Shown piece after piece: positions 10,839-62,366 of a DNA stretch of 64,000 nt. Each line of letters begins with the position of its first letter. Within the stretch, counting starts at the first letter, position 1. The notes under the pieces are model-generated. The model had not been told where the DNA came from. It worked only from the letters and a program-made list of their open reading frames with translations, and did no database searches. Origin of the DNA: a virus (taxonomy: Duplodnaviria; Heunggongvirae; Uroviricota; Caudoviricetes); the IMG/VR virus record IMGVR_UViG_3300033077_000655; one strand, 5' to 3'. A program made the translations under genes and the position numbers.

Positions 10839-11063
10839 ATGGCTAAAATTATTATCAAAAGCAATCCACGTACTGAACAAACCTGGGAGGAACTGGATCA
10901 ATATCGTGAGTTTTGCGTAGACTACGGATACAAGTTCAATGAGGCGGATCTGTATAACTTCCGCAGTTATGCATTCCAACAGTTCAACAAACATACTCAA
11001 GGCAAGCCTGCCAAGAACATGTGGGATGAAGACACTCGTCGACTGGCAGGATACCGCACATGA
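10839..11063 (+). CDS. hypothetical small protein
   Basis: RBS aggaaact precedes the ATG. Confidence 0.35.
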   Translation: MAKIIIKSNPRTEQTWEELDQYREFCVDYGYKFNEADLYNFRSYAFQQFNKHTQGKPAKNMWDEDTRRLAGYRT

Positions 11064-12229
11064 GAAAACTCTACTACATGGGACTAGAGCCCTATAAAGC
11101 ACGTTATACATTGCAATTGCAAGACTGGAATACTGCGGTGTTTGGTAAAAGAGGCATCAACTATGTTGTTGTGCCCGGTGAAACACTCAGCAACGACCAA
11201 GCAATTGTTACTGGGCAAGTGCTAGATGCCCACGGTCGAACATACTTTGGTATGAGTCAACTTATGAATCTAGTTAAGATGATGAAGGCCGGAGAACTCA
11301 ACAATGAAGATGTTATCTACTTTGAGGACATGTTTCAACCTGGCATTGAATCATTACCGTATATTCTTAAACAAATCGACCCAATTTTCAGGCCTAGGAT
11401 TTATGTTCGCTGTCTTGCTCAGTCCATTGATCCTGATGATTTTGTTCACGTTTGGGGTATGCAGCATTTTATGGCAGCATATGAGTACATGGTTGACTCG
11501 TTCGTAGATGGTATACTTGCTACCAATGAAGAAATGGTAATGCACATGAAGATTGCAGGGTGGGGTGCCCCAATCTATAATATCTCAGGATTGGCATTTG
11601 GCAAGAGTGAAGTACAAAGTCGTGTGGATAGTATCAAACCATTCAACGACCGTAAATTTCGTGTGGTATTTTCTGCACGTTGGGATCAAGAAAAGCAACC
11701 GGACTTTTACATGGATTTAGCAGAACGTGTGAAAGAAAAGAGTCCATTGATTGAGTTTTGTGTATGTAGTGGTAGTAAATTAAAATCCAATAATGATAGT
11801 TACATGGCACGTACTAGAGATTTGCAAGATCGAGGTATATTAACAATTTACGAAGATTTAGAAAAGAATGATTACTACAATATTGTTAATGACAGTCGTG
11901 TTGTGTTTAATTGTGCCCTTCAAGACTGGGTTTCAAACACGGTCTCGGAAGCAGATGCTCTTGGGTGTAATGTTCTATACCCTGCTTATCGTAGTTTCCC
12001 TGAGACTTTTAGTAATGATCATTCCAGACTTTATGTACCCTGGTCAATAGAAGACGCAGAAGCAAAATTGATTCCGTTATTGTATAATCCAAGTCCTAAC
12101 ATGGGCAAGATTAGTGACCGTAATGATAGCACTATAGACAGAATCTGTGATATACTTGAGGGCAAGGGCGAAGATATGCTGCGAATGGGCGTGGACTATC
12201 GCAAGCACACTCGAGAAAGCAAATACTAA
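11060..12229 (+). CDS. glycosyltransferase-like protein (GT-B C-terminal domain-like)
   Basis: C-terminal half has alternating beta-alpha character with acidic residues, typical of group-1 GTs. Weak. Confidence 0.4.
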   Translation: MRKLYYMGLEPYKARYTLQLQDWNTAVFGKRGINYVVVPGETLSNDQAIVTGQVLDAHGRTYFGMSQLMNLVKMMKAGELNNEDVIYFEDMFQPGIESLPYILKQIDPIFRPRIYVRCLAQSIDPDDFVHVWGMQHFMAAYEYMVDSFVDGILATNEEMVMHMKIAGWGAPIYNISGLAFGKSEVQSRVDSIKPFNDRKFRVVFSARWDQEKQPDFYMDLAERVKEKSPLIEFCVCSGSKLKSNNDSYMARTRDLQDRGILTIYEDLEKNDYYNIVNDSRVVFNCALQDWVSNTVSEADALGCNVLYPAYRSFPETFSNDHSRLYVPWSIEDAEAKLIPLLYNPSPNMGKISDRNDSTIDRICDILEGKGEDMLRMGVDYRKHTRESKY

Positions 12230-16458: not shown

Positions 16459-18465
16459 ATGAAGAACAAAATTGCCTGGGTTCAACCCAATTTCCAACAA
16501 GGGCCTGCAGAGTTTAATGCATATTACTTGCCCTACTCAGCCGGTGTGGTATGGAGTTACAGTCTAGCTGATCCTTGGATTCGAGAACGGTTTGAAGCCA
16601 CTGATTGGGTATGGCGTAGAGACGCTGTAGAACCATTGGCACAAAAACTGGCACAAAACGACATTGTGACTTTTAGTACCTATGTGTGGAATCATCGTTA
16701 CAATTATGCTGTGGCCAAACGCATCAAGGAAATCAATCCTGCTGTATTGACTGTATTTGGTGGCCCTGAAGTTGCTATAACCGACCCTGACCTGTTTGTT
16801 AAAGAATCTTTTATGGATCTTGTGATTTGCTACGAAGGCGAAATAACTTTCAAACGTGTGCTACAGCACTTTGAAACTAAAGATTGGGAAAATGTACCTG
16901 GACTGTTGATCAACAGAAATGGCCGCGCAATACAAACACAGGATTCTAAACGTATTGAGTCATTAGAGGAAGTGCCCAGCCCGTACTTGGCAGGCATCTT
17001 TGACCAGATGATTGCCGATCATCCTGACATAACATGGCAAGGCACATTAGAAACCAATCGTGGTTGTCCGTTTGCTTGTACATTCTGTGACTGGGGTAGT
17101 TTGACCTACAACAAAGTTAAAAAGTTTGAACTTGAACGTGTGTTTGAAGAACTAGAATGGATGGCCAAACGCAACTTTGATTGGATCTCAATTACCGATG
17201 CTAACTTTGGTATGTTCCCCGAACGTGATGGTATGATTGCTGACAAGATAATTGAGTGCCAAGAAAAATACGGTTCTCCACGCACGTTTAGTGTGGCCTG
17301 GGCTAAAAATCAAAAGAAAGAAGTGATCGACATTGTAAAGAAACTGTTGGATGCTCGTGGCTTCAATCAAGGATTAACACTCAGTGTACAAAGCCTTGAC
17401 CAGGATGTGTTGGAAAATATTCGCCGCAAAAATATGGAAATGAACAAACTGGAGGAAGTGTTTGAATTATGTGATCAGCGTAATATTCCTGCATACACAG
17501 AACTCATACTTGGGTTGCCTGGTGAGACATTGACCACCTGGAAGAAAAACTTTTATGCATTGTACGAGTTAAATCAGCACACTGGCATTACTGTGTTTCA
17601 AGCGCAGTTGTTGGAAAATGCCGAAATGAACTTGTTGCAAAAGAAACTGTTCAAGATCACCAGCCAACCTGTTACAGATTACTTTGCTGGCAGTTACAGC
17701 GTGGAACACATTGAAGAAAGCATTGACGTTATCACCGGCACCAAAGACATGCCCACACCAGTGATGTTGGATGCACAGATCTTTTCCTGGTTCCAGACCA
17801 CATTCCACATAAATGGATTTGCCACATTGATTGCTAGATTTATCAACAAATACACAGGTATAAGTTACAATGATTACTATGAAGAGTTGTTTGCATATTT
17901 TATGACCAATGAGTGGTTGAAGAAAGAACAAAACGAAGCAAGACAATACTTTTCTAATTGGATGACCACTGGCCGAATCAACCATCCCAAGATTGGTGTG
18001 GAAATACACGGGTGGAACATCATACACAGAACCAGCATGAACATGCATCAAGAAGATCGGGTAGATGAGTTGTATGATTTCTTGGAAATATTTTTGCAAC
18101 GATACAATCTACCCGAAGATTTATCAACCAGTCTGATGAAACTACAAAGAAGTTACTACATCAAGTACAATGATAGAAATCAATATCCTATGAATCTTAA
18201 GTTAGATTATAATATTTGGGATTACTTGAGTTTTAATCAACCCTTGACAAAGACTTCTACAACATATCGATTGGACTTTCCAGAGGATAAAACTATGAGT
18301 CTTAATCGATTCTTAGAACTGTTTTATTTTGCAAGACGCAGAAACTTTGGTAAAGCCACTGTGGATCTTGTGGGAGTCGAAAATGCCAATGGAACACAAC
18401 GTGGTGCTGGGAGTGCCAAAGCACAAGGCAGTTTTTCTGTGAAGAAAAAATTATTAACCATATAA
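16459..18465 (+). CDS. B12-binding-domain radical SAM protein
   Basis: NRGCPFACTFCDW (Cx3Cx2C) follows an N-terminal Rossmann-like B12-binding-like domain. Confidence 0.7.
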   Translation: MKNKIAWVQPNFQQGPAEFNAYYLPYSAGVVWSYSLADPWIRERFEATDWVWRRDAVEPLAQKLAQNDIVTFSTYVWNHRYNYAVAKRIKEINPAVLTVFGGPEVAITDPDLFVKESFMDLVICYEGEITFKRVLQHFETKDWENVPGLLINRNGRAIQTQDSKRIESLEEVPSPYLAGIFDQMIADHPDITWQGTLETNRGCPFACTFCDWGSLTYNKVKKFELERVFEELEWMAKRNFDWISITDANFGMFPERDGMIADKIIECQEKYGSPRTFSVAWAKNQKKEVIDIVKKLLDARGFNQGLTLSVQSLDQDVLENIRRKNMEMNKLEEVFELCDQRNIPAYTELILGLPGETLTTWKKNFYALYELNQHTGITVFQAQLLENAEMNLLQKKLFKITSQPVTDYFAGSYSVEHIEESIDVITGTKDMPTPVMLDAQIFSWFQTTFHINGFATLIARFINKYTGISYNDYYEELFAYFMTNEWLKKEQNEARQYFSNWMTTGRINHPKIGVEIHGWNIIHRTSMNMHQEDRVDELYDFLEIFLQRYNLPEDLSTSLMKLQRSYYIKYNDRNQYPMNLKLDYNIWDYLSFNQPLTKTSTTYRLDFPEDKTMSLNRFLELFYFARRRNFGKATVDLVGVENANGTQRGAGSAKAQGSFSVKKKLLTI

Positions 18466-31610: not shown

Positions 31611-32405
31611 ATGAAACGTATTTTGACTCTCTCTATTTTGGCTGCTGCTGTGTTGGCTGCAGGCTGTACTCGTATTGAAACTGGTGAAGTTGGTGTACGA
31701 GTTGGATTTGATAAACAAGTCCAATCAGGTGAACTGCTTCCCGGTTCTTTTAATCAATCACTAATTGGCGAGGTACTGACGTTCCCAATTAAAGATGTTA
31801 ATGTTCAGTTAAGTGATATGACCCCGGTTGCCAAAGACAACTCGACCATGAAGGACTTTGATGCTGTGGTTGTTTATAATATCAACCCACAACAAGTGTC
31901 TGAGCTGTACTCCACTAAGAACAAGAGTTTCCATGCCGAGTTCAAAGGCGACACATACGTGATGTACAACTACATTGTTCAAAATGCTCGTAATGCTATC
32001 TACAAAGCTGCTCGTAAGCACGAGGCTCTGGATATGGCAGACGCTCGTAGCGACATGGAAAACTTCATCAAGGAAGAAATTGTTCGCAATCTTGCCGAGG
32101 AAAAGCTGGACGGCAGCATCACTATTAGTCAAGTGTTGATTCGTAATATTGTTCCTGCAGATTCAGTTGTGGCCAGTGCCAATGAATTGGTCAAATCCAA
32201 GAACGAACTAAAGCAGAAGGAAATTGAAGTCAAAACTGCTGAAGCTGAAAGCCGTCGTATGGCAGCCCTGGCCAACAACAGCGGCAGCTCAATTGCATTT
32301 ATGCAAGCTCAGGCCATGTTGAATATCTCGGAAGGTATTAAGACAGGCAAGGTTCAGACCATTGTTGTTCCAAGTAACTTCAACGCACTAATGATGTCTA
32401 AGTAA
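31611..32405 (+). CDS. SPFH/band-7 domain lipoprotein
   Basis: Lipobox signal MKRILTLSILAAAVLAAGC; central prohibitin/stomatin-like region; coiled-coil C-terminus. Confidence 0.55.
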   Translation: MKRILTLSILAAAVLAAGCTRIETGEVGVRVGFDKQVQSGELLPGSFNQSLIGEVLTFPIKDVNVQLSDMTPVAKDNSTMKDFDAVVVYNINPQQVSELYSTKNKSFHAEFKGDTYVMYNYIVQNARNAIYKAARKHEALDMADARSDMENFIKEEIVRNLAEEKLDGSITISQVLIRNIVPADSVVASANELVKSKNELKQKEIEVKTAEAESRRMAALANNSGSSIAFMQAQAMLNISEGIKTGKVQTIVVPSNFNALMMSK

Positions 32406-33617: not shown

Positions 33618-34289
33618 ATGGGTACGATGCCCATATCATCAAAACCTTTAATTGCCTTGTTCTCTCACCATCCAGAATGCAGCAATCAAAGCTGTAATGG
33701 GGTGGAGCAGAGCCTGGGCAGTCACTATCGTGTACAGAGATTCAACGAAAAAACCCTAAATTCAGACTTGTTGGCACAATCAGCAATGGTTGTGTTTCCG
33801 GGTGGGATTGGTGAGGCTGATCGCTACTACGATTTCTTCCTGCGCAAACGAGCCAACATGATAGCTGATTTTGTAGAATCGGGCGGCAGGTACTTGGGTA
33901 TTTGCATGGGAGCATACTGGGCCGGACATTGGTTTTTTGATATTCTGCAGGACGTAAAGTGCGAACAATACATCAAACGCCCAGGTGCCGATGTACGTAG
34001 AAGTTATGGCACTGTTACTCCAATCAACTGGCAAGGACAACAGCATAACATGTTCTTTTGGGACGGATGTGCCTTGATTGGTGATGAGACCAAATTTACC
34101 ACTGTGGGTCGCTATGCAAATGGTGACCCAATGGCCATAATCCAAAACAGAGTCGGAGTGATTGGTTGCCACTTGGAAAGTACCCGATTATGGTATCAAA
34201 AACCTTGGCAATATCTAGCACCACACTGGCATCACGGGCTGCATCATCAACTGTTGTTGCAATTTACCCACACACTGATGTCAACATAG
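33618..34289 (+). CDS. class-I glutamine amidotransferase-like fold protein (weak)
   Basis: VFPGGIGEAD...LGICMGAYWAG resembles the GATase1 nucleophile-elbow context. Confidence 0.3.
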   Translation: MGTMPISSKPLIALFSHHPECSNQSCNGVEQSLGSHYRVQRFNEKTLNSDLLAQSAMVVFPGGIGEADRYYDFFLRKRANMIADFVESGGRYLGICMGAYWAGHWFFDILQDVKCEQYIKRPGADVRRSYGTVTPINWQGQQHNMFFWDGCALIGDETKFTTVGRYANGDPMAIIQNRVGVIGCHLESTRLWYQKPWQYLAPHWHHGLHHQLLLQFTHTLMST

Positions 34290-34290
34290 C

Positions 34291-34319
34291 TTGACTATAA
34301 TAGTCCTATGCTATATAAT
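34291..34319 (+). promoter_or_regulatory. promoter TTGACT-N17-TATAAT
   Basis: TTGACT at 34291-34296 and TATAAT at 34314-34319, upstream of the 34308 ORF. Confidence 0.45.
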
Positions 34320-34554: not shown

Positions 34555-35124
34555 TTGGCCAAACAAAACGGAAATAATATGAAAACTTGGGTAACATCAG
34601 ACTTACACTTTGGGCACAAAAATATCATGAGTTTTTGTCCTAACACCCGTGCGCGGTTTCGCAACGACGTTGCATACATGAACGAACAAATGGTGATCGA
34701 ATGGAATGCCATGATTGCTCCTGAAGATACTGTTTACATCCTAGGCGATGTGGCATTCTTGCCAGCGGCCAAAGCAGCAGAATACATGATGCGTTGCAAT
34801 GGCAACAAGATCCTGATTGAAGGCAATCACGATCGCAAGACCTTGCAGGATAATGGATTCCGTGCATGTTTTCGAGAAGTCCACAAGTATCTGGATGTGC
34901 AGTTCAACGAAATCAAAGTTGTGATGTTTCACTATCCTATTGCAGAATGGGATCAAATGCATCGCGGTGCTGTTCACTTGCACGGTCATTTGCACGGTGG
35001 TGTAAGTGGATTGGAGCGATATCGCGCTGTGGATGTGGGTATGGATTCCACTGGTGCAATTGCCATCTCCATGGACGAAGCAATTCGACTTGGCCTAAAG
35101 GGTGCAATCAAAGGACATCATTAA
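34555..35124 (+). CDS. calcineurin-like metallophosphoesterase
   Basis: DLHFGH, ILGDVAF and GNHD motifs. Confidence 0.7.
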   Translation: MAKQNGNNMKTWVTSDLHFGHKNIMSFCPNTRARFRNDVAYMNEQMVIEWNAMIAPEDTVYILGDVAFLPAAKAAEYMMRCNGNKILIEGNHDRKTLQDNGFRACFREVHKYLDVQFNEIKVVMFHYPIAEWDQMHRGAVHLHGHLHGGVSGLERYRAVDVGMDSTGAIAISMDEAIRLGLKGAIKGHH

Positions 35125-35971
35125 CATGATCACTGATATCATCGGCCGTGAAATTCAAGTGGATAACTTGACCGTATCAGCCTTGTCTTTTTATCAGACA
35201 CAATATGCTAATATAAAAACAGTGCGAGATTATTTTTCTTGGATGGACAACTATGAAAATCTCATAGACATTCTAGGTCCCGATGTATATAAAATTTCTA
35301 AGTTAGCAACCAGCATCACCATTAGAGAATACAAAATAGAGCATGTTGCCACAGTCACATCCCCAACTCTAATAGATCTAGCTAATAAAATCTCCAAAGA
35401 CAACAAGCATATTACTGCTTCAAATAGTTCTTTTGATACCAACTATCTAGGTGGTGAGCATGCTATGCAAAAAGCCGCAGGATTCAATTCGATAACACAC
35501 AGTATAATCAATCCTGTAGCGTATCCTGAATTATTAACCATAGCACAAGCATTTGATCTAGAGCATTGTGCCGTAGCAATACAATATCAACCAACTGCTT
35601 GTATTTTTCCAGCACATGTGGATACTATGTTGACCATGTGGCGGAACATAGCTGCTAGCGATCCTACAGTATTAGATTTGCCATTTGATGTGTCCACAAA
35701 GTCAATAAAAGGAATGACATCTATTAGGTTGTTGTTGGCACTGACTGATTATGTACCCGGGCATGTGTTAGGAGTAGATGATCAATATTGGACCAATTGG
35801 AAAATTGGAGATGCAGTGGTATTTGATAATTGTAATCGAATGCACTACACAGCAAATACTGCATGGGTTCCTAGGGTGTTTTTAAGAATCAGTGGCATGA
35901 TCAATAACTCATCAGACCATTGGATCATCAATAACATCAACCAACACTTGGTCAAGCAGATACAATTATAA
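35102..35971 (+). CDS. hypothetical protein, possible 2OG-Fe(II) oxygenase-like
   Basis: PAHVDT (HxD) and a later His. Weak. Confidence 0.3.
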   Translation: MQSKDIINMITDIIGREIQVDNLTVSALSFYQTQYANIKTVRDYFSWMDNYENLIDILGPDVYKISKLATSITIREYKIEHVATVTSPTLIDLANKISKDNKHITASNSSFDTNYLGGEHAMQKAAGFNSITHSIINPVAYPELLTIAQAFDLEHCAVAIQYQPTACIFPAHVDTMLTMWRNIAASDPTVLDLPFDVSTKSIKGMTSIRLLLALTDYVPGHVLGVDDQYWTNWKIGDAVVFDNCNRMHYTANTAWVPRVFLRISGMINNSSDHWIINNINQHLVKQIQL

Positions 35972-35977
35972 ATTGTC

Positions 35978-37282
35978 ATGGAATTTTTTATAATATTTCT
36001 TGCAATTCCAATAGGACTCTTGGTAGGAATGTTGCCAGCAATAGGAGACAGCGTGATGATGATCATGCTATATCCATTTGTAGCACATTTAGAATTCAAC
36101 ACTTTGATTGCATTTTATGCTACTATGATCACGTGTGGGCAGTTTAGCTCAAGTGTAGTTGGGCTGTGGCTTGGCCTTGCTGGTGATGTCACAGCCATTC
36201 CAGTTCTTAAAGAACGACGAGAAATCATCAACTCCAACTTGTTATGGACTGCATTGTATAGGACCGGGCAGGCTAGTGCTATTGCCACGTTAGCATCTGT
36301 AGCAATGCTGAGCTTGTTAATTCAGTTTGGTACTGAATTTCGATATTTTCTTCGCACAGATGTATTTTTTGTCATTATAGTTATGGTAGCAGTTTCTGCA
36401 CTGGCTTGGTCTGGAAATAAATTCAAAACAAATTTACTATTGTGCTTGATTGGTCTAGTAGGTAGCTTGATTGGATACAATCAGTTTTTAGGTAAATCTA
36501 TCCTGACCATGGGGGTAGAATTTTTGGTCAATGGCTTGCCTTTCCTTCCTATACTGTTAGGCATGTATGCCATCCCTATGTTGTTTGCTGCCATGGCAGA
36601 TATGTCCAATGCAAGTCCAGTGGATCACACCAAAATTGATACTAGTCAACCTATACAATTAGTACCTGCAGCAGTGATGGCCCGAGGTACTATCATTGGA
36701 TTTTTAACAGGGCTATTGCCGTTGATTGGAGTAACAGTAAGTGCTGCTACTGCACATTTTGTTGAATCCAAAATCAAATCTAGCACAGCACTGACAAGAA
36801 TAAGTTCAGCAGAAGCAGCTGACAATGCGGCTGTGATATCTGTGCTGTTTCCATTATTGGTATTTGGTGTGGCAATACAACCAAGTGAGGCCATAGTGGT
36901 CAATTTGCTGACTGATCGCGGATGGTCAATTAACCAACTCAAAGCAGACACTTATTTGAAAATGGGCGTGGGTATATCAGTTGGAGTGGTGGCATGTCTT
37001 GCATTTTGTGTGCATTATATTGTTCAGATGATCAACTGGTTTACCAGATATTACCAATATGTATTTTATTTTATTTTTGCATTGATAGCATGTGATGTTT
37101 GGTATTTGGGCATGGACTCAGACCGATCAGTCTTTTACATGATTGTTTTTGCAATTTCCACGGTGGTGGGATATTTTTTGTACAAGAAAAAAATTGATCC
37201 AGTTCCAATGATTTTTGTATGGATGCTGGGTCCGTATTTTTGGCCGACTGCATATAGACTTTTACAGCTATATGTTTTATAA
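35978..37282 (+). CDS. polytopic membrane protein, TctA-family-like transporter subunit
   Basis: At least 10 hydrophobic segments; N-terminal GLLVGMLPAIGDS resembles the TctA GxLPGxG signature. Confidence 0.5.
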   Translation: MEFFIIFLAIPIGLLVGMLPAIGDSVMMIMLYPFVAHLEFNTLIAFYATMITCGQFSSSVVGLWLGLAGDVTAIPVLKERREIINSNLLWTALYRTGQASAIATLASVAMLSLLIQFGTEFRYFLRTDVFFVIIVMVAVSALAWSGNKFKTNLLLCLIGLVGSLIGYNQFLGKSILTMGVEFLVNGLPFLPILLGMYAIPMLFAAMADMSNASPVDHTKIDTSQPIQLVPAAVMARGTIIGFLTGLLPLIGVTVSAATAHFVESKIKSSTALTRISSAEAADNAAVISVLFPLLVFGVAIQPSEAIVVNLLTDRGWSINQLKADTYLKMGVGISVGVVACLAFCVHYIVQMINWFTRYYQYVFYFIFALIACDVWYLGMDSDRSVFYMIVFAISTVVGYFLYKKKIDPVPMIFVWMLGPYFWPTAYRLLQLYVL

Positions 37283-37302
37283 TTAACTAGAAAGGATACT
37301 CT

Positions 37303-38166
37303 ATGATTAAAAAACTATTAACCGTCGTGACTGCAATGGTTATCGCTGCCGGTGCGTCCGCAGCTGACAAAACATTTACATTTTTAATTCCTTGGGGTGG
37401 CGGTTCAAATGATCAAAATATTGCCGAACTACTAACCCCCGGCCTTAAACAACTGGGATGGGATACATCGATTGTTTTGTACAATGGCAATTGTGCAGCT
37501 ATGGCACAGGATCTTAAAAATACCAAAAAACCAACAATAGCAGTGTGGTCTAATAGAGACCATTTGTTGCCTCTTGATCACGAATGCTATCTTGTGCCAC
37601 CTACTGCACAAAATATGATATCAATTTGGTATTATGCACCCGATTATCTTTGTGCTGTTGGTAAGACTGCACCTGATGCTATTTTTACCACGCCCGGTAC
37701 ATATCGTATTAGTGTACAGTCATTCCCGAGCACTTTGAATTGGGTCACTGATGCTATCAAATCTGTCAGCCCCGGCACAGTCAAAACTGTAATCTACAGC
37801 GGTAGTGGAGCGCAGATCCGTGCCGCTGCTGCACAAGAAACTGAGTATGTGTTAGGAACGTCAGGCAAGGTCATTGAACGCAATGGTCAAGCTGTATGTA
37901 CTCACAATACCGGCCCGACTGAGTCACTGGGCACACGCCCACTGGGAGAGATCAACCAAAGTGTAATGAATTATTACATGATGGTTTATGCTTCTTCCAA
38001 AAATATTCCTGCTAATCTTCAAACTGAACTACGTTCTGATATGGCTCGTTTGTTGCAAACCCAACTGCTACAAGATTATTTTAAGACCAGACAGTTTATA
38101 ACAAAAATGTCTACAGCATCAACCGACGAACAAGTTAACTTTTTGGTGAAATCAATTAAAAAATAA
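37303..38166 (+). CDS. periplasmic solute-binding protein, TctC/Bug-family-like
   Basis: Signal peptide MIKKLLTVVTAMVIAAGASA; FLIPWGGGSNDQNIAELLTPGLKQLG resembles the TctC PxxGGxxD...LG motif. Confidence 0.5.
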   Translation: MIKKLLTVVTAMVIAAGASAADKTFTFLIPWGGGSNDQNIAELLTPGLKQLGWDTSIVLYNGNCAAMAQDLKNTKKPTIAVWSNRDHLLPLDHECYLVPPTAQNMISIWYYAPDYLCAVGKTAPDAIFTTPGTYRISVQSFPSTLNWVTDAIKSVSPGTVKTVIYSGSGAQIRAAAAQETEYVLGTSGKVIERNGQAVCTHNTGPTESLGTRPLGEINQSVMNYYMMVYASSKNIPANLQTELRSDMARLLQTQLLQDYFKTRQFITKMSTASTDEQVNFLVKSIKK

Positions 38167-39218
38167 TGCACTACGTCAATGATACAAAAATTGTATATTC
38201 TCAATGGGATATCAACTACACTACTGATTATAAGTTTGTGTTAGGCAACGGGTTTGACAATTACAAATTCTCAATCAATCGGGCTATTAGTTTTGAACAT
38301 GCAGTTAGAGATCATCTGATTCAACTGAGAGATCAACATTCGTATTTGCGTTTTTGGTTTTCGGGTGGACCAGACTCGCGTATAGTTCTTGATACTGCCT
38401 ACAAATACAATATTGCGTTTGACGAAATTGTAATGATTCGATATACCCCGACTGATCCACTGGTTGTGTTTTGTAATTTGGCCGAAGTTGATCGATGTGC
38501 TATTCCAATTGCACACAACTACAAAGAAAAATTTGTGTCAACTAAGTTAACAGTAATCAATTGCGACAACAATTATTTTAATTGGTTTTACACTGCCCCT
38601 GAGTGGCACAAGAAGTTCATGCATTTTTGCTATGTAGAGCCGGGTATGATGAAAGGCATCTATGAATACAATCGATGTTATCCCATACTGGATGATGTAA
38701 ATCCGTTTGATTTATTTGGATTTCAACAGCCTACCATATGGTTTGACACAGATCAACAATGTTGGAAATTTTTATACATTGATAGAACATTTAATCAAAT
38801 CATGGATACTCCAGAATCAATTTGCACTGGTTCAGGATCTGCTGTTCTAAATGCATATCTGTCAGAACTTATACCAAAGTTTGAGTCACTGGGATACTTT
38901 CCAAAAAAATTCAAAGAGACTATCACTGGTAGAGAACAAAAAAATATGTTGTCTTTGTTTCAAAATTTAACATATCCTGCCGGGGCAATTCTTATGCCCA
39001 AGAAATCCCATCAACTACAAAAAACATATCCCACTGCTGATAAATTTTGGTATGCAACCGGTGATTTTTCTGACGAACTACACACATTGATATTTTATGG
39101 ACTAGATCAACGTCCAAGTTCTTTTGAAAACTGGGCGTTTAAATCCAACTGGGATGAAATTTTAATCAATCTCCGCAGAGGTGGAATTTTATCTCAAGAG
39201 TTTATATTTCAAACTTGA
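38166..39218 (+). CDS. PP-loop ATP pyrophosphatase-like protein (QueC/asparagine-synthase-like?)
   Basis: LRFWFSGGPDSRIVLD (SGGxDS PP-loop). Confidence 0.4.
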   Translation: MHYVNDTKIVYSQWDINYTTDYKFVLGNGFDNYKFSINRAISFEHAVRDHLIQLRDQHSYLRFWFSGGPDSRIVLDTAYKYNIAFDEIVMIRYTPTDPLVVFCNLAEVDRCAIPIAHNYKEKFVSTKLTVINCDNNYFNWFYTAPEWHKKFMHFCYVEPGMMKGIYEYNRCYPILDDVNPFDLFGFQQPTIWFDTDQQCWKFLYIDRTFNQIMDTPESICTGSGSAVLNAYLSELIPKFESLGYFPKKFKETITGREQKNMLSLFQNLTYPAGAILMPKKSHQLQKTYPTADKFWYATGDFSDELHTLIFYGLDQRPSSFENWAFKSNWDEILINLRRGGILSQEFIFQT

Positions 39219-39234: not shown

Positions 39235-39263
39235 TTGACCAGAATTGCCCGTTCTGCTATAAT
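39235..39263 (+). promoter_or_regulatory. promoter TTGACC-N17-TATAAT (GTTGACCAGAATTGCCCGTTCTGCTATAAT family)
   Basis: TTGACC at 39235-39240 and TATAAT at 39258-39263. Confidence 0.55.
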
Positions 39264-39482: not shown

Positions 39483-39986
39483 ATGACCATGGTAGAAAGA
39501 GCCCGAGTATTTGCCACCGCTGCCCACGCTGCGGTTGGACAAGTGCGTAAGTATACATTTGAGCCGTACATTATGCATCCTGCCGAAGTTGCAGGCATTG
39601 TTGCAACTGTGCCACATACAGATGTGATGTTGGCTGCTGCTTGGTTGCACGACACAGTGGAAGACACTGGTGTTAGCATTGTGGATATCCAAAAAGAATT
39701 TGGCAATGAGGTTGCATCCTTAGTCAGCTGGTTGACTGATGTCAGTGAGCCAGAACAAGGCAACAGGGCTGTTCGCAAAGCCATAGACCGTGAGCATACT
39801 GCAATGGCACCTGCCGCTGCACAAACTGTGAAGTTGGCTGACTTGATCGCCAACAGTCGCAGCATCTTGGCACACGACCCTGCATTTGCAAAAGTGTATT
39901 TGGAAGAAAAGCGCATGTTGTTGGAAGTATTAACCCGCGGTGACGCCACATTGATGGTTCAAGCCCGACAGATTGTAGGAGCATAA
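39483..39986 (+). CDS. HD-domain phosphohydrolase, SpoT/Mesh1-like (p)ppGpp hydrolase candidate
   Basis: RKYTFEPYIMHPAEVAGIV...AAWLHDTVEDT matches the SpoT N-terminal HD motif. Confidence 0.65.
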   Translation: MTMVERARVFATAAHAAVGQVRKYTFEPYIMHPAEVAGIVATVPHTDVMLAAAWLHDTVEDTGVSIVDIQKEFGNEVASLVSWLTDVSEPEQGNRAVRKAIDREHTAMAPAAAQTVKLADLIANSRSILAHDPAFAKVYLEEKRMLLEVLTRGDATLMVQARQIVGA

Positions 39987-40365: not shown

Positions 40366-41256
40366 ATGAACAAAGAACTATTGAAAGAGTTTGTGCTAGC
40401 CAACCCACGGTTGGTTAGTATGAAGCCTGCTGGCGATGGTATCTTTGTGCTCAAGTACAAGAAGGCTGTGTTCTACGACAACTTGTGGAATGACTTTTTG
40501 GAAGAATGTCGCGGTACAATTGTTGACATTGACTTTAATGTGGTGTCACGTCCATTCACAAAGATCTACAACTACGGTGTAGAAGCCAAGGCTCCTGTGC
40601 TGAGTGAAGATACTGTGGTAGAATGCTTTCGTAAGGTCAATGGCTTTATGGTTGCAGTGACTTGGCACGACGGTCGACTGCTGGTATCCACAACTGGATC
40701 CACATCTGGTGACTTTGTAGACATGGCCAACTCCTTCATTGACCGGCGTCGCGGCACCTTTGAACGGTATGTGAGTGGCTTCCCTGACTTGACTTTTATG
40801 TTTGAATGTGTGCATGCAAATGATCCACACATCATTGTAGAAAAGCCAGGACTGTACTTGCTGGGCTATCGTAAAAAGACTTGGGAAAGCCGTAGCGAAA
40901 ACGATGGACTCAGCCTGTATCACCAATATGCATTGTCAGACCACGTGGTAGAATGGAAGCGTTGTACTCTGGGCGAACTAGTACAGGAAGTGAAAACTGT
41001 TCGGCATGAAGGTTTTGTAGTATATGCTAACGACTATACTACATCCTTCAAGATCAAAAGCCCATACTACCTAACTGCAAAGTGGGTGGCACGTAACCCT
41101 CGCACCGACAAACTGATGACACAAGAATTCCGAGAACAATTGGATGAAGAGTATTACCCGCTGCTGGAGCACATCCGTGCTAACATAGAGGCTTATACTG
41201 TTATGGATGAACAAGCACGCCTGGCCTGGGTGCGTGAATATTTGGAGATGGTATGA
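40366..41256 (+). CDS. rnlA: RNA ligase 1 (T4 RnlA-like)
   Basis: LEECRGTIV...SRPFTKIYN aligns with T4 RnlA ALECRGIMF...SRPMEKFFN; KVNGFM matches motif I KxDG; EGFVVY matches motif IV. Confidence 0.7.
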   Translation: MNKELLKEFVLANPRLVSMKPAGDGIFVLKYKKAVFYDNLWNDFLEECRGTIVDIDFNVVSRPFTKIYNYGVEAKAPVLSEDTVVECFRKVNGFMVAVTWHDGRLLVSTTGSTSGDFVDMANSFIDRRRGTFERYVSGFPDLTFMFECVHANDPHIIVEKPGLYLLGYRKKTWESRSENDGLSLYHQYALSDHVVEWKRCTLGELVQEVKTVRHEGFVVYANDYTTSFKIKSPYYLTAKWVARNPRTDKLMTQEFREQLDEEYYPLLEHIRANIEAYTVMDEQARLAWVREYLEMV

Positions 41257-48150: not shown

Positions 48151-48358
48151 TGCAGCATGTTAAGAAATTAACATACGCTCATTAAAAATTTATTGATATA
48201 AAGACTGGAAACAGTCCAAGTCTTTATATCCACATGCACAAATGCCTTGCGCAGGCAGATGTAGCGGATTACAGCTCTGGTCAATCCGGGGTAGGCAGGT
48301 TCAATTCCTGCAAGTGTATGTGGATATAGAGATTTTGATAATTCAAAATAAAAAATTT

Positions 48359-48783: not shown

Positions 48784-50310
48784 ATGTACAATGCTATACT
48801 TTTTACAGATCGAACCGACAACATATTTGGATCGGTCACTATTGGGGCATTTAAATGTGCTCATGTTTTAAGAAAACACGGATACTCGTGTTTGGTAGTC
48901 AATCATTATTCAGAATATACACATGAGGATCTGGTTGAACTTGTTGATTTAGCAGTGTCAGATCAAACTATCCTGATTGGGTTTAGTTCTACATATTTAA
49001 AAAATACTCAAATACAAAAACAAGTAGGAGAACCCACACCACCATATCCTGACATTGTTGATGACTCGGTATTCCCGCAAGGCAAAGATTTTGAAAATAA
49101 ATTTTTTGAATATTTGCATAAAACAAATAGCAAACTAAAAATCATAGTAGGTGGTACAAGGGTAACACAACAATATTCTAACAGGAATATTGACTATGCA
49201 TTTATTGGATATAGTGAAATATCTATAGTTAATCTAGCCAATCATCTGACCACCGGCGAACGCTTAGATAAAAGCAGTAAAAATATATACGGTGTGGTCA
49301 TCGTTGATGATCGATTTGCTCCTGCATATAATTTTAATAGTGAAGATATGAGTTGGGAAGCCACAGATATAGTGAATCATCACAGTCTTCCTATAGAAAT
49401 AGGTCGTGGATGTATTTTTAAATGCAAGTTTTGTGCCTTTCCGATGAATGGAAAACAAAATTTAGATTTTGTTAAAACTGCTGATATACTGGAAGCTGAG
49501 TTAAAAAACAACTACGATAGGTATGGTGTTCGACATTATCACATTGTGGATGATACCTTCAATGACCATATTGAAAAATTAGAATCTATACGTCGTGTGG
49601 TTGATCGTTTGAATTTTCAACCGGTATTTTGGGGGTATCACAGATTAGATCTACTGTGTACTAGACCAGAAACAGTAAAAATATTGCACGATATTGGTGT
49701 TAGATCAATGTATTTTGGCATTGAGACTTTGAATGAAAAAGCAGGAAAAATAATTGGTAAAGGATACAACAAATCACGTCAGATTGACATGATTCAAACC
49801 ATTCGCAATCAATATTCTGACATCTCAATGCACGGAAGTTTTATTCTAGGATTGCCCGAGGAGAGTATTGACAGCGTGTGGGAAACTCATAATAGTTTAA
49901 TAAGTCAACAGATTCCATTGCATAGTTGGATGTCAAATGGATTGCACATGTATAACAACGATAAATCTACATACGTCAGTGAGTTTGAAAAAAACTTTAC
50001 CAAATATGGGTATGTTGATATTGGCACTGATAATGAATCTAATTCAAGAAATTGGAAGAACAATTTTACTAACAGTGAAGAAGTCAGAGTATTGGCTGCA
50101 AAATTTACCAACGAATCTCGACGGTTACCAAATTTTATGCTGCCCGGGCATGATGCATTGGCTTTGTCAACATATGGCGTTGATTTTGATATATCACGAT
50201 TTACCCCATATCATCAATTTGATTTCCATGCTGTAGAGCACACTGTTAAACCAAATTTTGATAAAGAATATAAAAAACAATTGTTGAATCTTATTCAACA
50301 TTCTAAATAA
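48784..50310 (+). CDS. B12-binding-domain radical SAM protein (paralog 1)
   Basis: GRGCIFKCKFCAF (Cx3Cx2C); N-terminal Rossmann-like domain; paralog of 50508..52154. Confidence 0.7.
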   Translation: MYNAILFTDRTDNIFGSVTIGAFKCAHVLRKHGYSCLVVNHYSEYTHEDLVELVDLAVSDQTILIGFSSTYLKNTQIQKQVGEPTPPYPDIVDDSVFPQGKDFENKFFEYLHKTNSKLKIIVGGTRVTQQYSNRNIDYAFIGYSEISIVNLANHLTTGERLDKSSKNIYGVVIVDDRFAPAYNFNSEDMSWEATDIVNHHSLPIEIGRGCIFKCKFCAFPMNGKQNLDFVKTADILEAELKNNYDRYGVRHYHIVDDTFNDHIEKLESIRRVVDRLNFQPVFWGYHRLDLLCTRPETVKILHDIGVRSMYFGIETLNEKAGKIIGKGYNKSRQIDMIQTIRNQYSDISMHGSFILGLPEESIDSVWETHNSLISQQIPLHSWMSNGLHMYNNDKSTYVSEFEKNFTKYGYVDIGTDNESNSRNWKNNFTNSEEVRVLAAKFTNESRRLPNFMLPGHDALALSTYGVDFDISRFTPYHQFDFHAVEHTVKPNFDKEYKKQLLNLIQHSK

Positions 50311-50401: not shown

Positions 50402-50490
50402 GCCAGCGAGACTTGGAAGTCAGAGAGGTCTTATACGCCTTTTAGCCCCAGATTAGGGTTCTTGAGAGAGTTCGATCCTCTCCGCTGGTA
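50402..50490 (+). tRNA. class-II-length tRNA of uncertain identity (possible anticodon TAT)
   Basis: Acceptor GCCAGCG/CGCTGGT; T arm GAGAG-TTCGATC-CTCTC; variable-arm hairpin AGCCCcagattaGGGTT; best anticodon arm GAGGT-CTTATAC-GCCTT (two G·U pairs). Confidence 0.45.
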
Positions 50491-50507
50491 CCACACATAA
50501 GTAATGA

Positions 50508-52154
50508 ATGTTTAATAATAAAAAACCTAATGTTATTTTAATTACAGATTCTACTGATATAATTTCTTTAAACATTCTACTTGGGCCATTTAAAGTAGCA
50601 CATGTTCTTAAAGAGCATGGAATAGAAGTTGCAATGATACATCATGCATCAGCATTGTCATTTAAAGAAATAACTACTATTCTCAAAGAGATAATATCTG
50701 ATCAAACTTTGTTGGTGGGTATAAACAATTTCTATTATTCTTCCATTGAACTTAATAAAGATAATGGCAGTGATGGCATGACATTAAAAGAAATTGACCC
50801 AGGTAGTTTTTTACCTCATGGAAAAAGCAAAAATATTGAGTTAAAAACACTGATTAAATCATTGAATCCCAAAACCAAAATAGTGCTTGGCGGTGTGACT
50901 GCATTAGATACCAAGTACAACAAAGATTTTGATTATCTTGTGTTAGGATACGCCGAAACTGCAATATTGGATCTGGTGGATCATCTTAGGTCATCGTCTC
51001 CTATAGAAAAAAGTTATAAAAGTATCTATGGGCCAATAGTGCTGACAGACAAGGTAGCGTCTAGATATGATTTTTCATCATCCCATATGCGGTATGATCC
51101 AGACTGGTCAATACTGCCTGGATCAACATTTCATCTAGAATTAGGTCGTGGATGCATTTTTAAATGTGCATTTTGCGCTTATCCTTTCAATGGAAAAAAG
51201 AAAACTGATTATATTAGATCAAAAGAATCTATTCAGGCTGAGATGATAGACAATTACAACAGATTTGGTGTCACACGTTATTTGATGGGTGACGATACGT
51301 TTAACGACAACGTTGATAAATGCCGAATGATTTATGAAATATCCCAAGAACTTCCATTTAAATTAGAGTACTGGGCGTATTTGAGATTAGACCTGCTGAC
51401 GGCACATCCTGAAACAATAGATTATTTGTTTGACAGCGGCTTAAAAGCGGCGTTTTTTGGTATTGAAACTCTGAACCCCAAGACTGCATCTATAATAGGC
51501 AAAGGTGGCAATCGAGATAAAATGTTTAAAACTATAGCTGATATTAAATCTAAGTGGGGTGATTTAGTTTCGTTAGCCGCTGGGTTTATTTATGGATTAC
51601 CCGAAGAAGATTTAGATAGCCTACAACGCACAACTGATTTTTTGATCAGTGACCAAAACAAACTAGATCAGTGGCTAGTTGAAGCTTTAAACATACGCCC
51701 TACCGTTGATTATGATAATAGCTTTATCAGCGATATAGAAAAAAATTATGAAAAATATGGTTATAGTAAAATAGACAACCACACTCGTCCAGGTGGGTCC
51801 AATATAGGCACTGATCGCCGACGACATGCTATAGTCTGGAAGAATAAACACACAGACTATTACTCTGTTTTAAACATTACCGAAGCACTGAATGCTAGAA
51901 TAAAACCACACTTGAAAATTCCCGGCGATGCGGCTCTCCTGTTGAGTGGGCTAGGCATAGATTTAGACCAACTATTAAACAAACAACATGACCAAGTGCC
52001 GTGGAATAAACTAGATCAACTACATTTAAAAAAAGTTTTTGAGTATAAAAAACTCTTAGCTAAGAATTTAAATTTTGATATTAATCTCATTGACATGAAA
52101 ATTTTGCATCACAAAACGTACGGTAATTATCTCAAAGCAATGTTTGAAAAATAA
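50508..52154 (+). CDS. B12-binding-domain radical SAM protein (paralog 2)
   Basis: GRGCIFKCAFCAY; domain order as in 48784..50310. Confidence 0.7.
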   Translation: MFNNKKPNVILITDSTDIISLNILLGPFKVAHVLKEHGIEVAMIHHASALSFKEITTILKEIISDQTLLVGINNFYYSSIELNKDNGSDGMTLKEIDPGSFLPHGKSKNIELKTLIKSLNPKTKIVLGGVTALDTKYNKDFDYLVLGYAETAILDLVDHLRSSSPIEKSYKSIYGPIVLTDKVASRYDFSSSHMRYDPDWSILPGSTFHLELGRGCIFKCAFCAYPFNGKKKTDYIRSKESIQAEMIDNYNRFGVTRYLMGDDTFNDNVDKCRMIYEISQELPFKLEYWAYLRLDLLTAHPETIDYLFDSGLKAAFFGIETLNPKTASIIGKGGNRDKMFKTIADIKSKWGDLVSLAAGFIYGLPEEDLDSLQRTTDFLISDQNKLDQWLVEALNIRPTVDYDNSFISDIEKNYEKYGYSKIDNHTRPGGSNIGTDRRRHAIVWKNKHTDYYSVLNITEALNARIKPHLKIPGDAALLLSGLGIDLDQLLNKQHDQVPWNKLDQLHLKKVFEYKKLLAKNLNFDINLIDMKILHHKTYGNYLKAMFEK

Positions 52155-55480: not shown

Positions 55481-55585
55481 ATGCCAAGTCCACGTAGAGC
55501 AAGTCAAATCCTCAAAGGTAAAAAACCACCAAAACCCAAGACCATGAAAGCCATGGCCAAACGTGTGGTACGAAAGAAAAAGTAA
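55481..55585 (+). CDS. small basic protein (34 aa)
   Basis: RBS aaggagatagtt-ATG; sequence MPSPRRASQILKGKKPPKPKTMKAMAKRVVRKKK; its stop overlaps the next start (TAATG). Confidence 0.3.
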   Translation: MPSPRRASQILKGKKPPKPKTMKAMAKRVVRKKK

Positions 55586-56814
55586 TGAGCAAACTCCTAT
55601 TAGAAATGGGTGATCACTGCGTAAGTGATTTTATCAAGAATGATAGTGAAGGCCTAGGCCGTAAAAAATACAGTCTAGACCTATACCAAGATGATCGGTT
55701 TGGCGCTGTTCGTCTTCACGGTGTTGCACCAGCAGATACCATGTGGGGTCAATATTGGTATCGCAGCGGTATCAACGCCAGCATGACTAAAGAATTGCAA
55801 GGCATTGTTGCAGAAGTAACTTCAAGGGTAAAGACCAAAGCCGGTGATATTTGGCTGGACATTGCATGCAATGACGGTACACTATTAAAAAGTGTGCCCG
55901 ATAACATGATCAAAATTGGTATTGATCCAGCCGACGACAGCTTCCGTAGTGAAAGCACCCGGGTTGCGCATGAAGTTGTTCAAGAATATTTCAGCTATGA
56001 TGCCTGGCAGAAAACAGGGTATGGGCATGCCAAAGCCAAGATCATTACTTGCATTGCAATGTTCTATGACTTAGATGATCCAGTTCCATTCATACAGGAT
56101 TTGTACCGTGTGCTGGATGACAATGGAACGTTGGTATTACAGATGAGCCATACCCCATTGATGGTGAAGCAGCTGGCATTTGACAATATCTGCCACGAAC
56201 ACGTTTACTACTATGATCTCAAGAGTATCACTAGACTATTTGCTGAAAATGGATTCAGGGTAGTTGATTGCAGTCTCAATGACACCAACGGTGGCAGCTT
56301 CAGAGTATATCTTCAGAAGGATGTGGCAGAAGTTTCTAGCTTTGCCACAGCACCCTTGCGTGATGTATGCAACTTTAGAGTCAATAGCATTCTTGCATAT
56401 GAAAGAGTAGAGAACGATATCACTGATCCCAAAACATGGAAATTGTTCGGCGATCGACTTGTTGTGCTAAAGGAACAAGTTGTTTCTTTTGTTCATCAGG
56501 CTGTGAAACAAGGAAAAACAGTTTATGGTTATGGAGCAAGCACCAAGGGCAATACACTGCTGCAATACTTTGGGCTGGACCATAATTATATCACTGCTAT
56601 TGCAGAACGCAGCCCTTACAAATTTGGCATGAAGACCATTGGTACCAACATTCCAATCATCAGTGAAGAAGAAATGCGTGTGGCCAAGCCAGACTACATG
56701 TTGGTATTGCCTTGGCACTTTATCAACGAATTTGAACAGCGTGAACAAGATTACTTGAAATCTGGTGGTACATTCATTGTTCCTTGTCCTGCATTTAGAT
56801 TGGTCACTGCATAG
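55585..56814 (+). CDS. SAM-dependent C-methyltransferase (NDP-hexose C-methyltransferase, TylCIII-like)
   Basis: WLDIACNDGTLL (motif I), IAMFYDLDDP, and a C-terminal YGYGASTKGNTLLQYF block typical of the C-methyltransferase C-terminal domain. Confidence 0.6.
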   Translation: MSKLLLEMGDHCVSDFIKNDSEGLGRKKYSLDLYQDDRFGAVRLHGVAPADTMWGQYWYRSGINASMTKELQGIVAEVTSRVKTKAGDIWLDIACNDGTLLKSVPDNMIKIGIDPADDSFRSESTRVAHEVVQEYFSYDAWQKTGYGHAKAKIITCIAMFYDLDDPVPFIQDLYRVLDDNGTLVLQMSHTPLMVKQLAFDNICHEHVYYYDLKSITRLFAENGFRVVDCSLNDTNGGSFRVYLQKDVAEVSSFATAPLRDVCNFRVNSILAYERVENDITDPKTWKLFGDRLVVLKEQVVSFVHQAVKQGKTVYGYGASTKGNTLLQYFGLDHNYITAIAERSPYKFGMKTIGTNIPIISEEEMRVAKPDYMLVLPWHFINEFEQREQDYLKSGGTFIVPCPAFRLVTA

Positions 56815-61988: not shown

Positions 61989-62085
61989 ACTTCCTATCTA
62001 TGGTGTGTGTTCAGATTATATAGAAACTATATTGTCTAAATAAATATATGAATAGTCGTAATCCCTTCAAAACAAAGGAATCCAA

Positions 62086-62366
62086 GACTCGGGGGCAGTG
62101 CCCGAATGGTCCACCAGAAGCATAATCGATTGGCTCAGAGCCAGTTGAGACATAAGAAACATGATTGTGCTTTTGATGGGCCATACACAGGATCGATTGG
62201 GTTAGATAGTGGCGACGGCGACTCGGTAGGCGATGACCGTTAATCAAGCGAAACCTATAAATGCCAACGACAGCGTTTATTCCTTAGCTGCCTAAACTCA
62301 GCTTAGGGTAGTTATACCTCGTAACAGAAAATAACAGAAGCCCGCTTCGGCGGGCTTTCTTTTGAC
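62086..62366 (+). ncRNA. ssrA: candidate tmRNA (ssrA)-like RNA with tag reading frame ANDSVYSLAA-stop; architecture unresolved
   Basis: Sits in a 380-bp non-coding gap. GCC AAC GAC AGC GTT TAT TCC TTA GCT GCC TAA at 62263-62295, preceded by CTATAAAT. Upstream ...GGTCCACCA at 62112-62120. Ends in a strong terminator. Confidence 0.5.
62338..62364 (+). terminator. intrinsic terminator
   Basis: AAGCCCGC-TTCG-GCGGGCTT followed by TCTTTTG. Confidence 0.8.

Follow-up and report, generated by a model that had tools for sequence, protein, structure and literature searches.

A divergent TctA-TctC gene pair without TctB, conserved in uncultured phages and probably encoding a carboxylate importer

The 64,000-nucleotide stretch of IMG/VR virus record IMGVR_UViG_3300033077_000655 analyzed here (the window) carries, on the plus strand like the neighboring genes of the block and the side features of the window described below, two adjacent and co-oriented genes that resemble components of a tripartite tricarboxylate transporter (TTT). 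The first, tctA (35978-37282), codes for a divergent, short permease of the TctA family (Pfam PF01970) with 434 amino acids (aa), and the second, tctC (37303-38166), located after a spacer of 20 nucleotides (nt), for the 287 aa precursor of a TctC-like exported solute-binding protein. Both are part of a co-oriented, tightly packed, operon-like block. An earlier sequence-only reading of this DNA had described a 434-aa polytopic protein with a GxLPxxG start, adjacent to and co-oriented with a signal-peptide protein showing the Bug/TctC pattern PWGGGSNDQ, and had considered them two parts of a TTT system. The coordinates of both open reading frames (ORFs) proved exact, and the TctA profile, the TctC fold and the linkage of the two genes support this interpretation.

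Searches against Pfam had been suggested there as a check on the call, and TctA aligns end to end with the PF01970 profile (positions 2-422 out of 423), at E=1.5e-39 and with a score of 136 bits where the cut-off is 28.9. Hydropathy gives 11 transmembrane (TM) segments; about 12 are expected in cellular TctAs. The family is defined by a duplicated motif, G-Hy3-G-Hy3-G-Hy2-P-G-Hy-G, in TM1 and TM7 (PMC5812351). In the window protein, whose N-terminus reads MEFFIIFLAIPIGLLVGMLPAIG (the GxLPxxG start), the motif is found as A9-IPI-G13-LLV-G17-ML-P20-A-I-G23 in the first half and as G237-TII-G241-FLT-G245-LL-P248-L-I-G251 in the second, with two of its glycine positions replaced (A9 and A21/L249). 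Residues G237, G241, G245 and P248 are invariant across the alignment of viral TctAs. The identity of the window protein to cellular TctAs is at most 24%, and the viral proteins aligned with 14 of these lack about 13 N-terminal residues. No solved structure related to TctA was detectable by sequence.

The TctC precursor starts with a predicted Sec signal peptide (37303-37362, residues 1-20) that has an A-S-A cleavage motif, the site having been judged by eye, and no lipobox; the N-terminus reads MIKKLLTVVTAMVIAAGASA/ADKTF, followed by LIPWGGGSNDQ. An N-terminal hydrophobic region was present in 73 of the 75 members of its family and a lipobox-like motif in one. Four conserved cysteines (C64, C95, C117 and C199) would fit a disulfide-bonded periplasmic protein. 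The window protein had no Pfam match at E<=0.1, falling below the TctC model (PF03401), and NCBIfam, PHROGs, the PDB (phmmer) and phage sequences (tblastn) yielded either no match or only noise (e.g., jacalin-like lectins). A word-indexed homology search found only four near-identical relatives, and an exhaustive HMMER search retrieved a family of 78 cluster representatives of about 260-305 aa. The window protein itself thus lies outside the current Pfam TctC model, which only 3 of 75 family members match directly (best E=1.5e-5); its modeled fold is that of TctC/Bug proteins.

The profile of 75 TctC-family sequences had 25hk as its best match in the PDB (E=1.4e-13, full length), followed by 7ndr, 2dvz, 4x9t, 2f5x, 8hka and 2qpq. 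AlphaFold2 (AF2) applied to this deep alignment produced a model with a predicted local distance difference test score (pLDDT) of 93.1 and a predicted template modeling score (pTM) of 0.87, compared with a pLDDT of 42.7 for a shallow alignment of five sequences, the depth having come from the exhaustive HMMER search. The top twelve Foldseek matches of the model were all TctC/Bug structures (template modeling score of ~0.70), with other classes of binding proteins at ~0.5. Conserved residues of the family are P30 (51/74), G34, G35 (71/74), Y165 (73/75), S168 and (E/D)179; in 25hk and 7ndr, the PFxAGGxxD and PYxG...D segments are their aligned counterparts. In the BugD and BugE structures, two strand-turn-helix "pincer" segments (PFxAGGxxD and PYxG...) reportedly hold the carboxylate of the ligand. 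Since profile matches, modeled fold, conserved segments and signal peptide all point in the same direction, we regard the 287 aa protein as a remote but genuine TctC homolog, predicted to be exported to the periplasm.

In IMG/VR, 93 viral contigs were found to code for a short TctA (419-453 aa); the best 80 of them, corresponding to 79 distinct loci, were retained. Pairing was counted with hidden Markov models built from alignments on 83 sequences carrying TctA (82 loci and the window), and an ORF of the TctC family was found within ~2 kb of TctA in 78 of them; four of the five exceptions are truncated by contig ends, and only one locus (L013) has no TctC in the DNA at hand. Clustered at 70% identity, the viral TctAs form 14 groups, 13 of them with TctC. 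The order of the genes varies among groups (tctA followed directly by tctC, tctC followed by tctA, a convergent arrangement with one gene in between, or tctA and tctC separated by a gap), so the linkage has been kept through rearrangement. A midpoint-rooted neighbor-joining tree separates the viral TctAs, as a single clade, from the 14 cellular TctAs sampled. Only one TctA, an ordinary one with 22% identity, came out of a pattern-based search through 185,579 species genomes, and no cultured phage with the gene turned up among 50,697 phage records when the window TctA and a marine viral one were used as tblastn queries. The clade of the pair has so far been seen on viral contigs alone. Both the Pfam match of TctA and the pairing in 78/83 sequences are far beyond chance. 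The sequence-only reading had considered a solute-uptake pair unusual in a phage; the pair recurs in many uncultured phages.

Among close relatives (dS up to about 1), dN/dS was 0.075-0.10 for tctA and 0.04-0.10 for tctC, which indicates strong purifying selection on both genes. These values bear on a role other than transport, such as superinfection exclusion, receptor masking, signaling or lysis control. Phage membrane and periplasmic proteins commonly do such jobs, and BctC acts as a sensor ligand for BctDE. Moreover, in locus L025 (9451-11795) and similar marine loci the pair and its associated genes adjoin tail-fiber-like or structural-looking genes (judged by eye), which would mean a location in or beside a host-recognition region. 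However, a full-length transporter and binding-protein architecture whose family motifs are under strong purifying selection argues otherwise, no sensor-kinase partner is found nearby, and neither protein resembles holin, virion or exclusion families, which makes a non-transport role very unlikely. The possibility of virion or lysis membrane proteins had been left open by the sequence-only reading; with a TctA profile match and no match to a holin or virion family, this did not materialize. Protein family matches and repeated recovery in phage contigs led us to reject the virion, holin and host-contamination readings alike.

The window is phage DNA and comes from a giant phage. It codes for a T4-type DNA polymerase (3788-6454, phrog_262, E=1.4e-194) with the jumbo phages Phosso and Atu_ph07 as nearest relatives (46-49% identity), carries 36 tRNA genes and one transfer-messenger RNA (tmRNA), and has almost all of its long ORFs on one strand; no similarity to cultured phages was found at the DNA level. 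The complete genome is probably larger than 300 kb, of which 64 kb are covered here. The tmRNA (62007-62360) belongs to the permuted, two-piece type found in betaproteobacteria (it scores 125 bits with Rfam beta_tmRNA, RF01850, whose gathering score is 84), with the tag peptide ANDSVYSLAA according to ARAGORN, and suggests that the host is probably a betaproteobacterium. A tmRNA is unusual cargo for a phage and a useful indicator of the host.

A trivial origin of the pair, either through faulty assembly that joined host DNA to a phage contig or as a recent host-derived "moron", has in its favor that TctA-like matches in INPHARED are clearly cellular DNA in dubious records. However, the same block of genes was recovered with its phage neighbors in five independent sequencing runs, in ENA assemblies and in several IMG/VR viral contigs, which have a TctA 98% identical to that of the window and the same local gene order, and the GC content of the tctA-tctC region is uniform and typical of the window. 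Therefore, mis-assembly and contamination are excluded, and with at most 24% identity to any cellular TctA and a virus-only clade with deep internal divergence, the chance of an artifact of either kind is negligible. Among the 2 kb bins, 36001-38000 is the only one in which the AT skew falls below zero (-0.08; the others range from +0.02 to +0.24). The skew probably derives from the T-rich codons of the hydrophobic TctA and not from a foreign origin, which the typical GC content disfavors.

The third component of TTT systems, the small subunit TctB with 4-5 TM helices, was missing from the sequence-only reading, and its absence was confirmed: apart from tctA, none of the window ORFs that reach 60 aa has three or more TM segments, and so the window contains no TctB-like ORF. 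Across the 82 viral loci, no small multi-TM ORF was consistently near TctA, and the few candidates corresponded to DUF6580, to fatty-acid hydroxylases or to nothing, none of them matching Pfam TctB. As a control, the scan applied to a cellular locus (L085, Mameliella alba) detected a multi-TM ORF with 174 aa and 5 scan peaks immediately before the gene for a TctA of 500 aa, with TctC ~2 kb upstream. One of the viral candidates, in L053 (3840-4229) and relatives (TctA group 7), is a DUF6580 protein with 3 TM segments (E=2e-17) located ~1.7 kb upstream of tctA and not TctB-like by Pfam.

The lack of a phage TctB raises the alternative of a hybrid system, in which the phage TctA recruits the TctB of the host, or the phage TctC feeds a host TctAB, re-targeting the specificity of the host transporter. 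There is a precedent in the cyanophage PstS, which is thought to work with the host PstCAB. Betaproteobacteria, the likely host group, have large TctC/"Bug" repertoires, in which numerous orphan binding proteins share a small number of TctAB pairs (PMC5812351). However, the phage TctA is no more than 24% identical to cellular ones and lacks their C-terminal helix, and the near-constant co-inheritance of TctA and TctC suggests that they are each other's partners. TctB is also poorly conserved, which makes a universal interface across the hosts of 14 groups unlikely. All this considered, a hybrid with host components seems improbable.

ATP-dependent ligase-type genes adjoin the pair in 13 of the 14 groups, often with translational coupling, and belong to two families that are mutually exclusive between clades: PP-loop in the clade of the window and a family here called A7 in a marine clade. 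In the window, this position is occupied by a gene for a PP-loop ATP-pyrophosphatase-like enzyme (38166-39218, 350 aa), translationally coupled to tctC by a TAATG overlap with its stop codon. The PP-loop motif S66-G67-G68-x-D70-S71 is invariant in an alignment of 13 family members, one of which matches Pfam PP-loop (ATP_bind_3) marginally (E=0.046); searches with the family found unannotated metagenomic proteins only. Its dN/dS is 0.08-0.13. PP-loop genes of 350-430 aa are located beside TctA, in one to three copies, in groups 0, 6, 9, 10, 11, 12 and 13 and in loci L091 and L093, and two distant members of the TctC family, sampled independently, showed the order TctA, TctC, PP-loop again. Two or three tandem PP-loop paralogs lie beside tctA in L012 (1059-5975), L010 (4811-8524) and L029 (1039-3352), and among those of L012 there is a gene of the membrane fatty-acid-hydroxylase family (4225-4668, Pfam E=2.6e-15).

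In the marine clade (groups 2, 3, 4, 5, 7 and 8) the PP-loop family is absent, and the A7 family, of ~390 aa and with KPxxGxG and DxNxR motifs, is always present. It had no match in the PDB and marginal ones in Pfam, and we describe it only tentatively as ATP-grasp-like. This clade also has a family of ~214 aa (A8) with an invariant HxD...H, the best match of which was to beta-hydroxylases (E=0.06). We tried to merge the neighbor families of both clades, and profile-profile comparison did not join them; hence, PP-loop and A7 are treated here as analogous and not homologous. Activation of carboxylates with ATP is common to PP-loop and ATP-grasp enzymes. In close relatives of the window phage, L002 (10685-11280), L003 and L004, rubrerythrin and rubredoxin-like genes were seen ~4.5 kb downstream of the module; at the equivalent place in the window neither turned up.

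Upstream of tctA, and ending 6 nt before it, there is a gene for a 2-oxoglutarate (2OG)/Fe(II)-oxygenase-like protein (35102-35971, 289 aa) without a Pfam match. The residues H172-x-D174...H248...R258 are invariant in the alignment of its family, and we tentatively consider it a 2OG/Fe(II) oxygenase. The family occurs together with TctA in groups 0, 7 and 8, and oxygenase-like genes are frequent next to the pair across groups. In L001, a Pfam Asp_Arg_Hydrox gene is found in place of the upstream gene of the window, with no detectable relation between the two; a homology of the 348 aa gene after tctC in L001 to the 350 aa gene of the window was ruled out by BLASTP.

Further upstream, the window codes for a class-I glutamine-amidotransferase (GATase)-like protein (33618-34289, 223 aa) that matches Pfam BPL_N, a family of GATase-like fold (E=5.2e-14), and, below the cut-off, GATase itself (E=0.02). 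A homolog is found directly upstream of tctC, tctA and a PP-loop gene in a distant locus (L017), and both proteins share a G-I-C-M-G nucleophile elbow and G-C-H-(L/P)-E-S. The combination of a GATase and a PP-loop domain is the standard architecture of glutamine-dependent amidotransferases, and the GATase-like protein is a possible partner of the PP-loop enzyme. The same co-oriented block codes for a metallophosphoesterase (34555-35124; Pfam Metallophos, E=6e-6; phrog_547, E=2.9e-52), whose membership in the module is uncertain; a homolog is present near the module in group 13 (L018 and L020), on the opposite strand. None of the proteins of the module is represented in PHROGs. Candidate promoter-like sites were detected upstream of the block (34291-34319, 11/12 match to the sigma-70 consensus) and just 3' of the PP-loop gene (39235-39263, 11/12 match with a TG extension), the latter possibly starting the next transcription unit; counts of promoter-like and terminator sites in the region were at the chance level. 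Uptake of nicotinate or quinolinate feeding a NadE-like PP-loop enzyme was also considered, prompted by the reported binding of quinolinate by Bug27 and Bug69 (PMC11452294), and was not adopted, the PP-loop family having no detectable similarity to NAD synthetase.

These neighbors bear on the simplest alternative, plain nutrient scavenging, in which the pair would provide more uptake of common di- or tricarboxylates (such as citrate, 2-oxoglutarate or succinate) for energy and carbon, and the neighboring enzymes would be unrelated. This is the default role of TTT systems (PMC5812351). Phage genomes are mosaic, so adjacency is often uninformative, and the identities of the neighbors are weak, with one locus having neither ligase family. 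However, chance would not predict an adjoining ligase-type gene in 13 of 14 groups, often translationally coupled and drawn from two exclusive families, and we find plain scavenging unlikely.

Several further features were observed in the window. The tRNA array (32920-55444) includes 36 genes that cover nearly every amino acid, with Tyr, Trp, Pro and Met genes duplicated and two oddities reported by ARAGORN, a tRNA-Cys with anticodon ACA (48234-48320) and a 92 nt tRNA-Ile with anticodon TAT (50402-50493). Three large radical-SAM proteins are encoded (16459-18465, 48784-50310 and 50508-52154), the first and third with B12-binding domains and the last two within the tRNA array; a possible role is methylation of RNA, DNA or a metabolite. 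Chemistry of the sugar-modification type is represented by a C-methyltransferase (55585-56814; E=1.7e-42 for its C-terminal Methyltransf_14 domain) and by a glycosyltransferase-like protein of group 1 (11060-12229). An SPFH/Band-7 membrane-scaffold protein (31611-32405, E=1.3e-16) is encoded a few kb upstream of tctA and is conserved there in the close relatives L002-L005 as well. Directly 3' of the module are an HD_4 phosphohydrolase, similar to hydrolases of the RelA/SpoT type (39483-39986), and an RNA ligase (40366-41256, phrog_562).

By analogy with cellular TTT systems, it seems likely that the pair forms a TctB-less, binding-protein-dependent carboxylate importer, with the imported acid possibly feeding the adjacent phage enzymes. 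TctC would be exported through Sec to the periplasm of a Gram-negative host, probably a betaproteobacterium, and there, as in other members of the TTT family, capture a carboxylate-bearing solute in its cleft. The loaded protein would dock on the phage TctA in the inner membrane, which would import the solute at the expense of an ion gradient, as the family is presumed to do. The pair would be transcribed within a block that includes the oxygenase-like and PP-loop-like genes, with the GATase-like gene upstream. In the course of infection, the phages thus probably take up an organic acid, which they may convert afterwards: the acid would be a substrate or co-substrate of the phage enzymes, activated with ATP and then amidated or ligated, and not bulk carbon alone. 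That import feeds the enzymes is the most economical reading of the module, and we hold it with lower confidence than transport itself. A more specific proposal is that a TctB-independent, two-component TTT is the entry to a phage "import-and-convert" pathway, in which a PP-loop enzyme with ammonia supplied by the GATase, or an ATP-grasp-like ligase in the marine clade, together with tailoring by an Fe/2OG-type oxygenase, would make a metabolite or a macromolecular modification needed for infection. This extension is speculative and less likely than not.

Several observations weigh against an autonomous importer that feeds phage enzymes. The viral TctAs lack the C-terminal ~40 residues of cellular TctAs, including the last TM helix, and the window TctC has, in its PWGGGS sequence, a serine at the second glycine of the GG motif, a position kept in 71/74 members. 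Without TctB, the pair might be non-functional alone or dependent on the TctB of the host. TRAP systems, which are analogous, require their small subunit (PMC5812351). A TctB could also be encoded elsewhere in the genome, in the part outside the window. On the enzymatic side, the PP-loop family profile matched the N-type ATP pyrophosphatase PH1257 in the PDB only marginally (E=0.034), the Pfam ATP-grasp matches of A7 were also marginal (E=0.04), and the similarity of the oxygenase-like profile to the TauD-type 2OG dioxygenase AtsK (E=7e-4) covers only 46 residues of the C-terminal part. L001, which stands for one group, has neither ligase-type family, and co-location of genes is no proof of a shared pathway.

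To our knowledge, most of the phage genes for nutrient uptake described to date code for a lone binding protein that relies on host machinery. Here, the binding protein and the permease of what would be a secondary transporter both come from the phage itself, and the pair is conserved over at least 14 deeply diverged lineages of uncultured phages from different environments. The TTT family is poorly understood: no measurement of its energy coupling has been made, and what TctB does is not known (PMC5812351). A TctA and TctC pair that naturally lacks TctB would offer a direct test of the need for this subunit and a compact structural target. The association with ligase- and oxygenase-type genes suggests import of a specific compound for phage chemistry, which would change how the auxiliary metabolic genes (AMGs) of viromes are read. 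If the import-and-convert proposal is true, these phages would have a metabolic module of a class not known from viruses before and, in its transporter, a TTT system that is minimal by nature. There is also a gap in annotation, as the viral TctC family is missed by the current Pfam, PHROG and NCBIfam models.

Compared with bacterial TTT systems (TC 2.A.80), the phage pair likewise has a TctA-family permease with duplicated Gly/Pro motifs and an exported protein of the TctC/Bug fold, encoded by adjacent, co-oriented genes, and presumably shares the ion-gradient-driven uptake of carboxylates that depends on a solute-binding protein. It differs in lacking TctB, in a TctA that is ~65 residues shorter and lacks the last TM helix, in a compact TctC (255-293 aa against ~320) too divergent for the Pfam model, in a clade so far seen only on viral contigs and in its linkage to PP-loop or ATP-grasp-like and oxygenase-like genes instead of the TctDE regulator. 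Stand-alone TctA homologs with neither TctB nor TctC are known in archaea (Winnen et al. 2003, reviewed in PMC5812351). These resemble the phage protein in occurring with no TctB and in having fewer predicted TM helices than the bacterial 12; however, the phages keep a dedicated binding protein. The cyanophage PstS and other uptake AMGs of phages and giant viruses are likewise virus-encoded binding proteins or transporters presumed to raise import, but PstS is an ABC-type binding protein that uses the permease and ATPase of the host, whereas here the phage brings the binding protein together with a secondary-transporter permease, and also its own enzymes that may use the solute.

Viral genes of this kind have been mentioned before. 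For viral contigs of SUP05, tctA was listed as a "protein domain hit only" (PMC4164917), an entry that a review took up again (PMC6359870). A myovirus scaffold from an oxygen minimum zone was noted to carry a tricarboxylate-transport gene (PMC8115048), and five proteins of uncultured Caudovirales in BFVD/UniProt are automatically annotated as "Bordetella uptake protein / PBP2_Bug_TTT", one of which (BFVD A0A6J5M1T7) matches our TctC model (E=1.4e-13, TM 0.72). These probably belong to the same viral gene pool, but they are automatic annotations of single genes, and we found in the searchable literature no analysis of the pairing, the missing TctB, the virus-specific clade or the linked enzymes. 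The existence of the genes in viruses is therefore not new; the novelty lies in the reduction of the transporter to two components and in its conserved combination with ligase-type genes as an "importer plus ligase" module.

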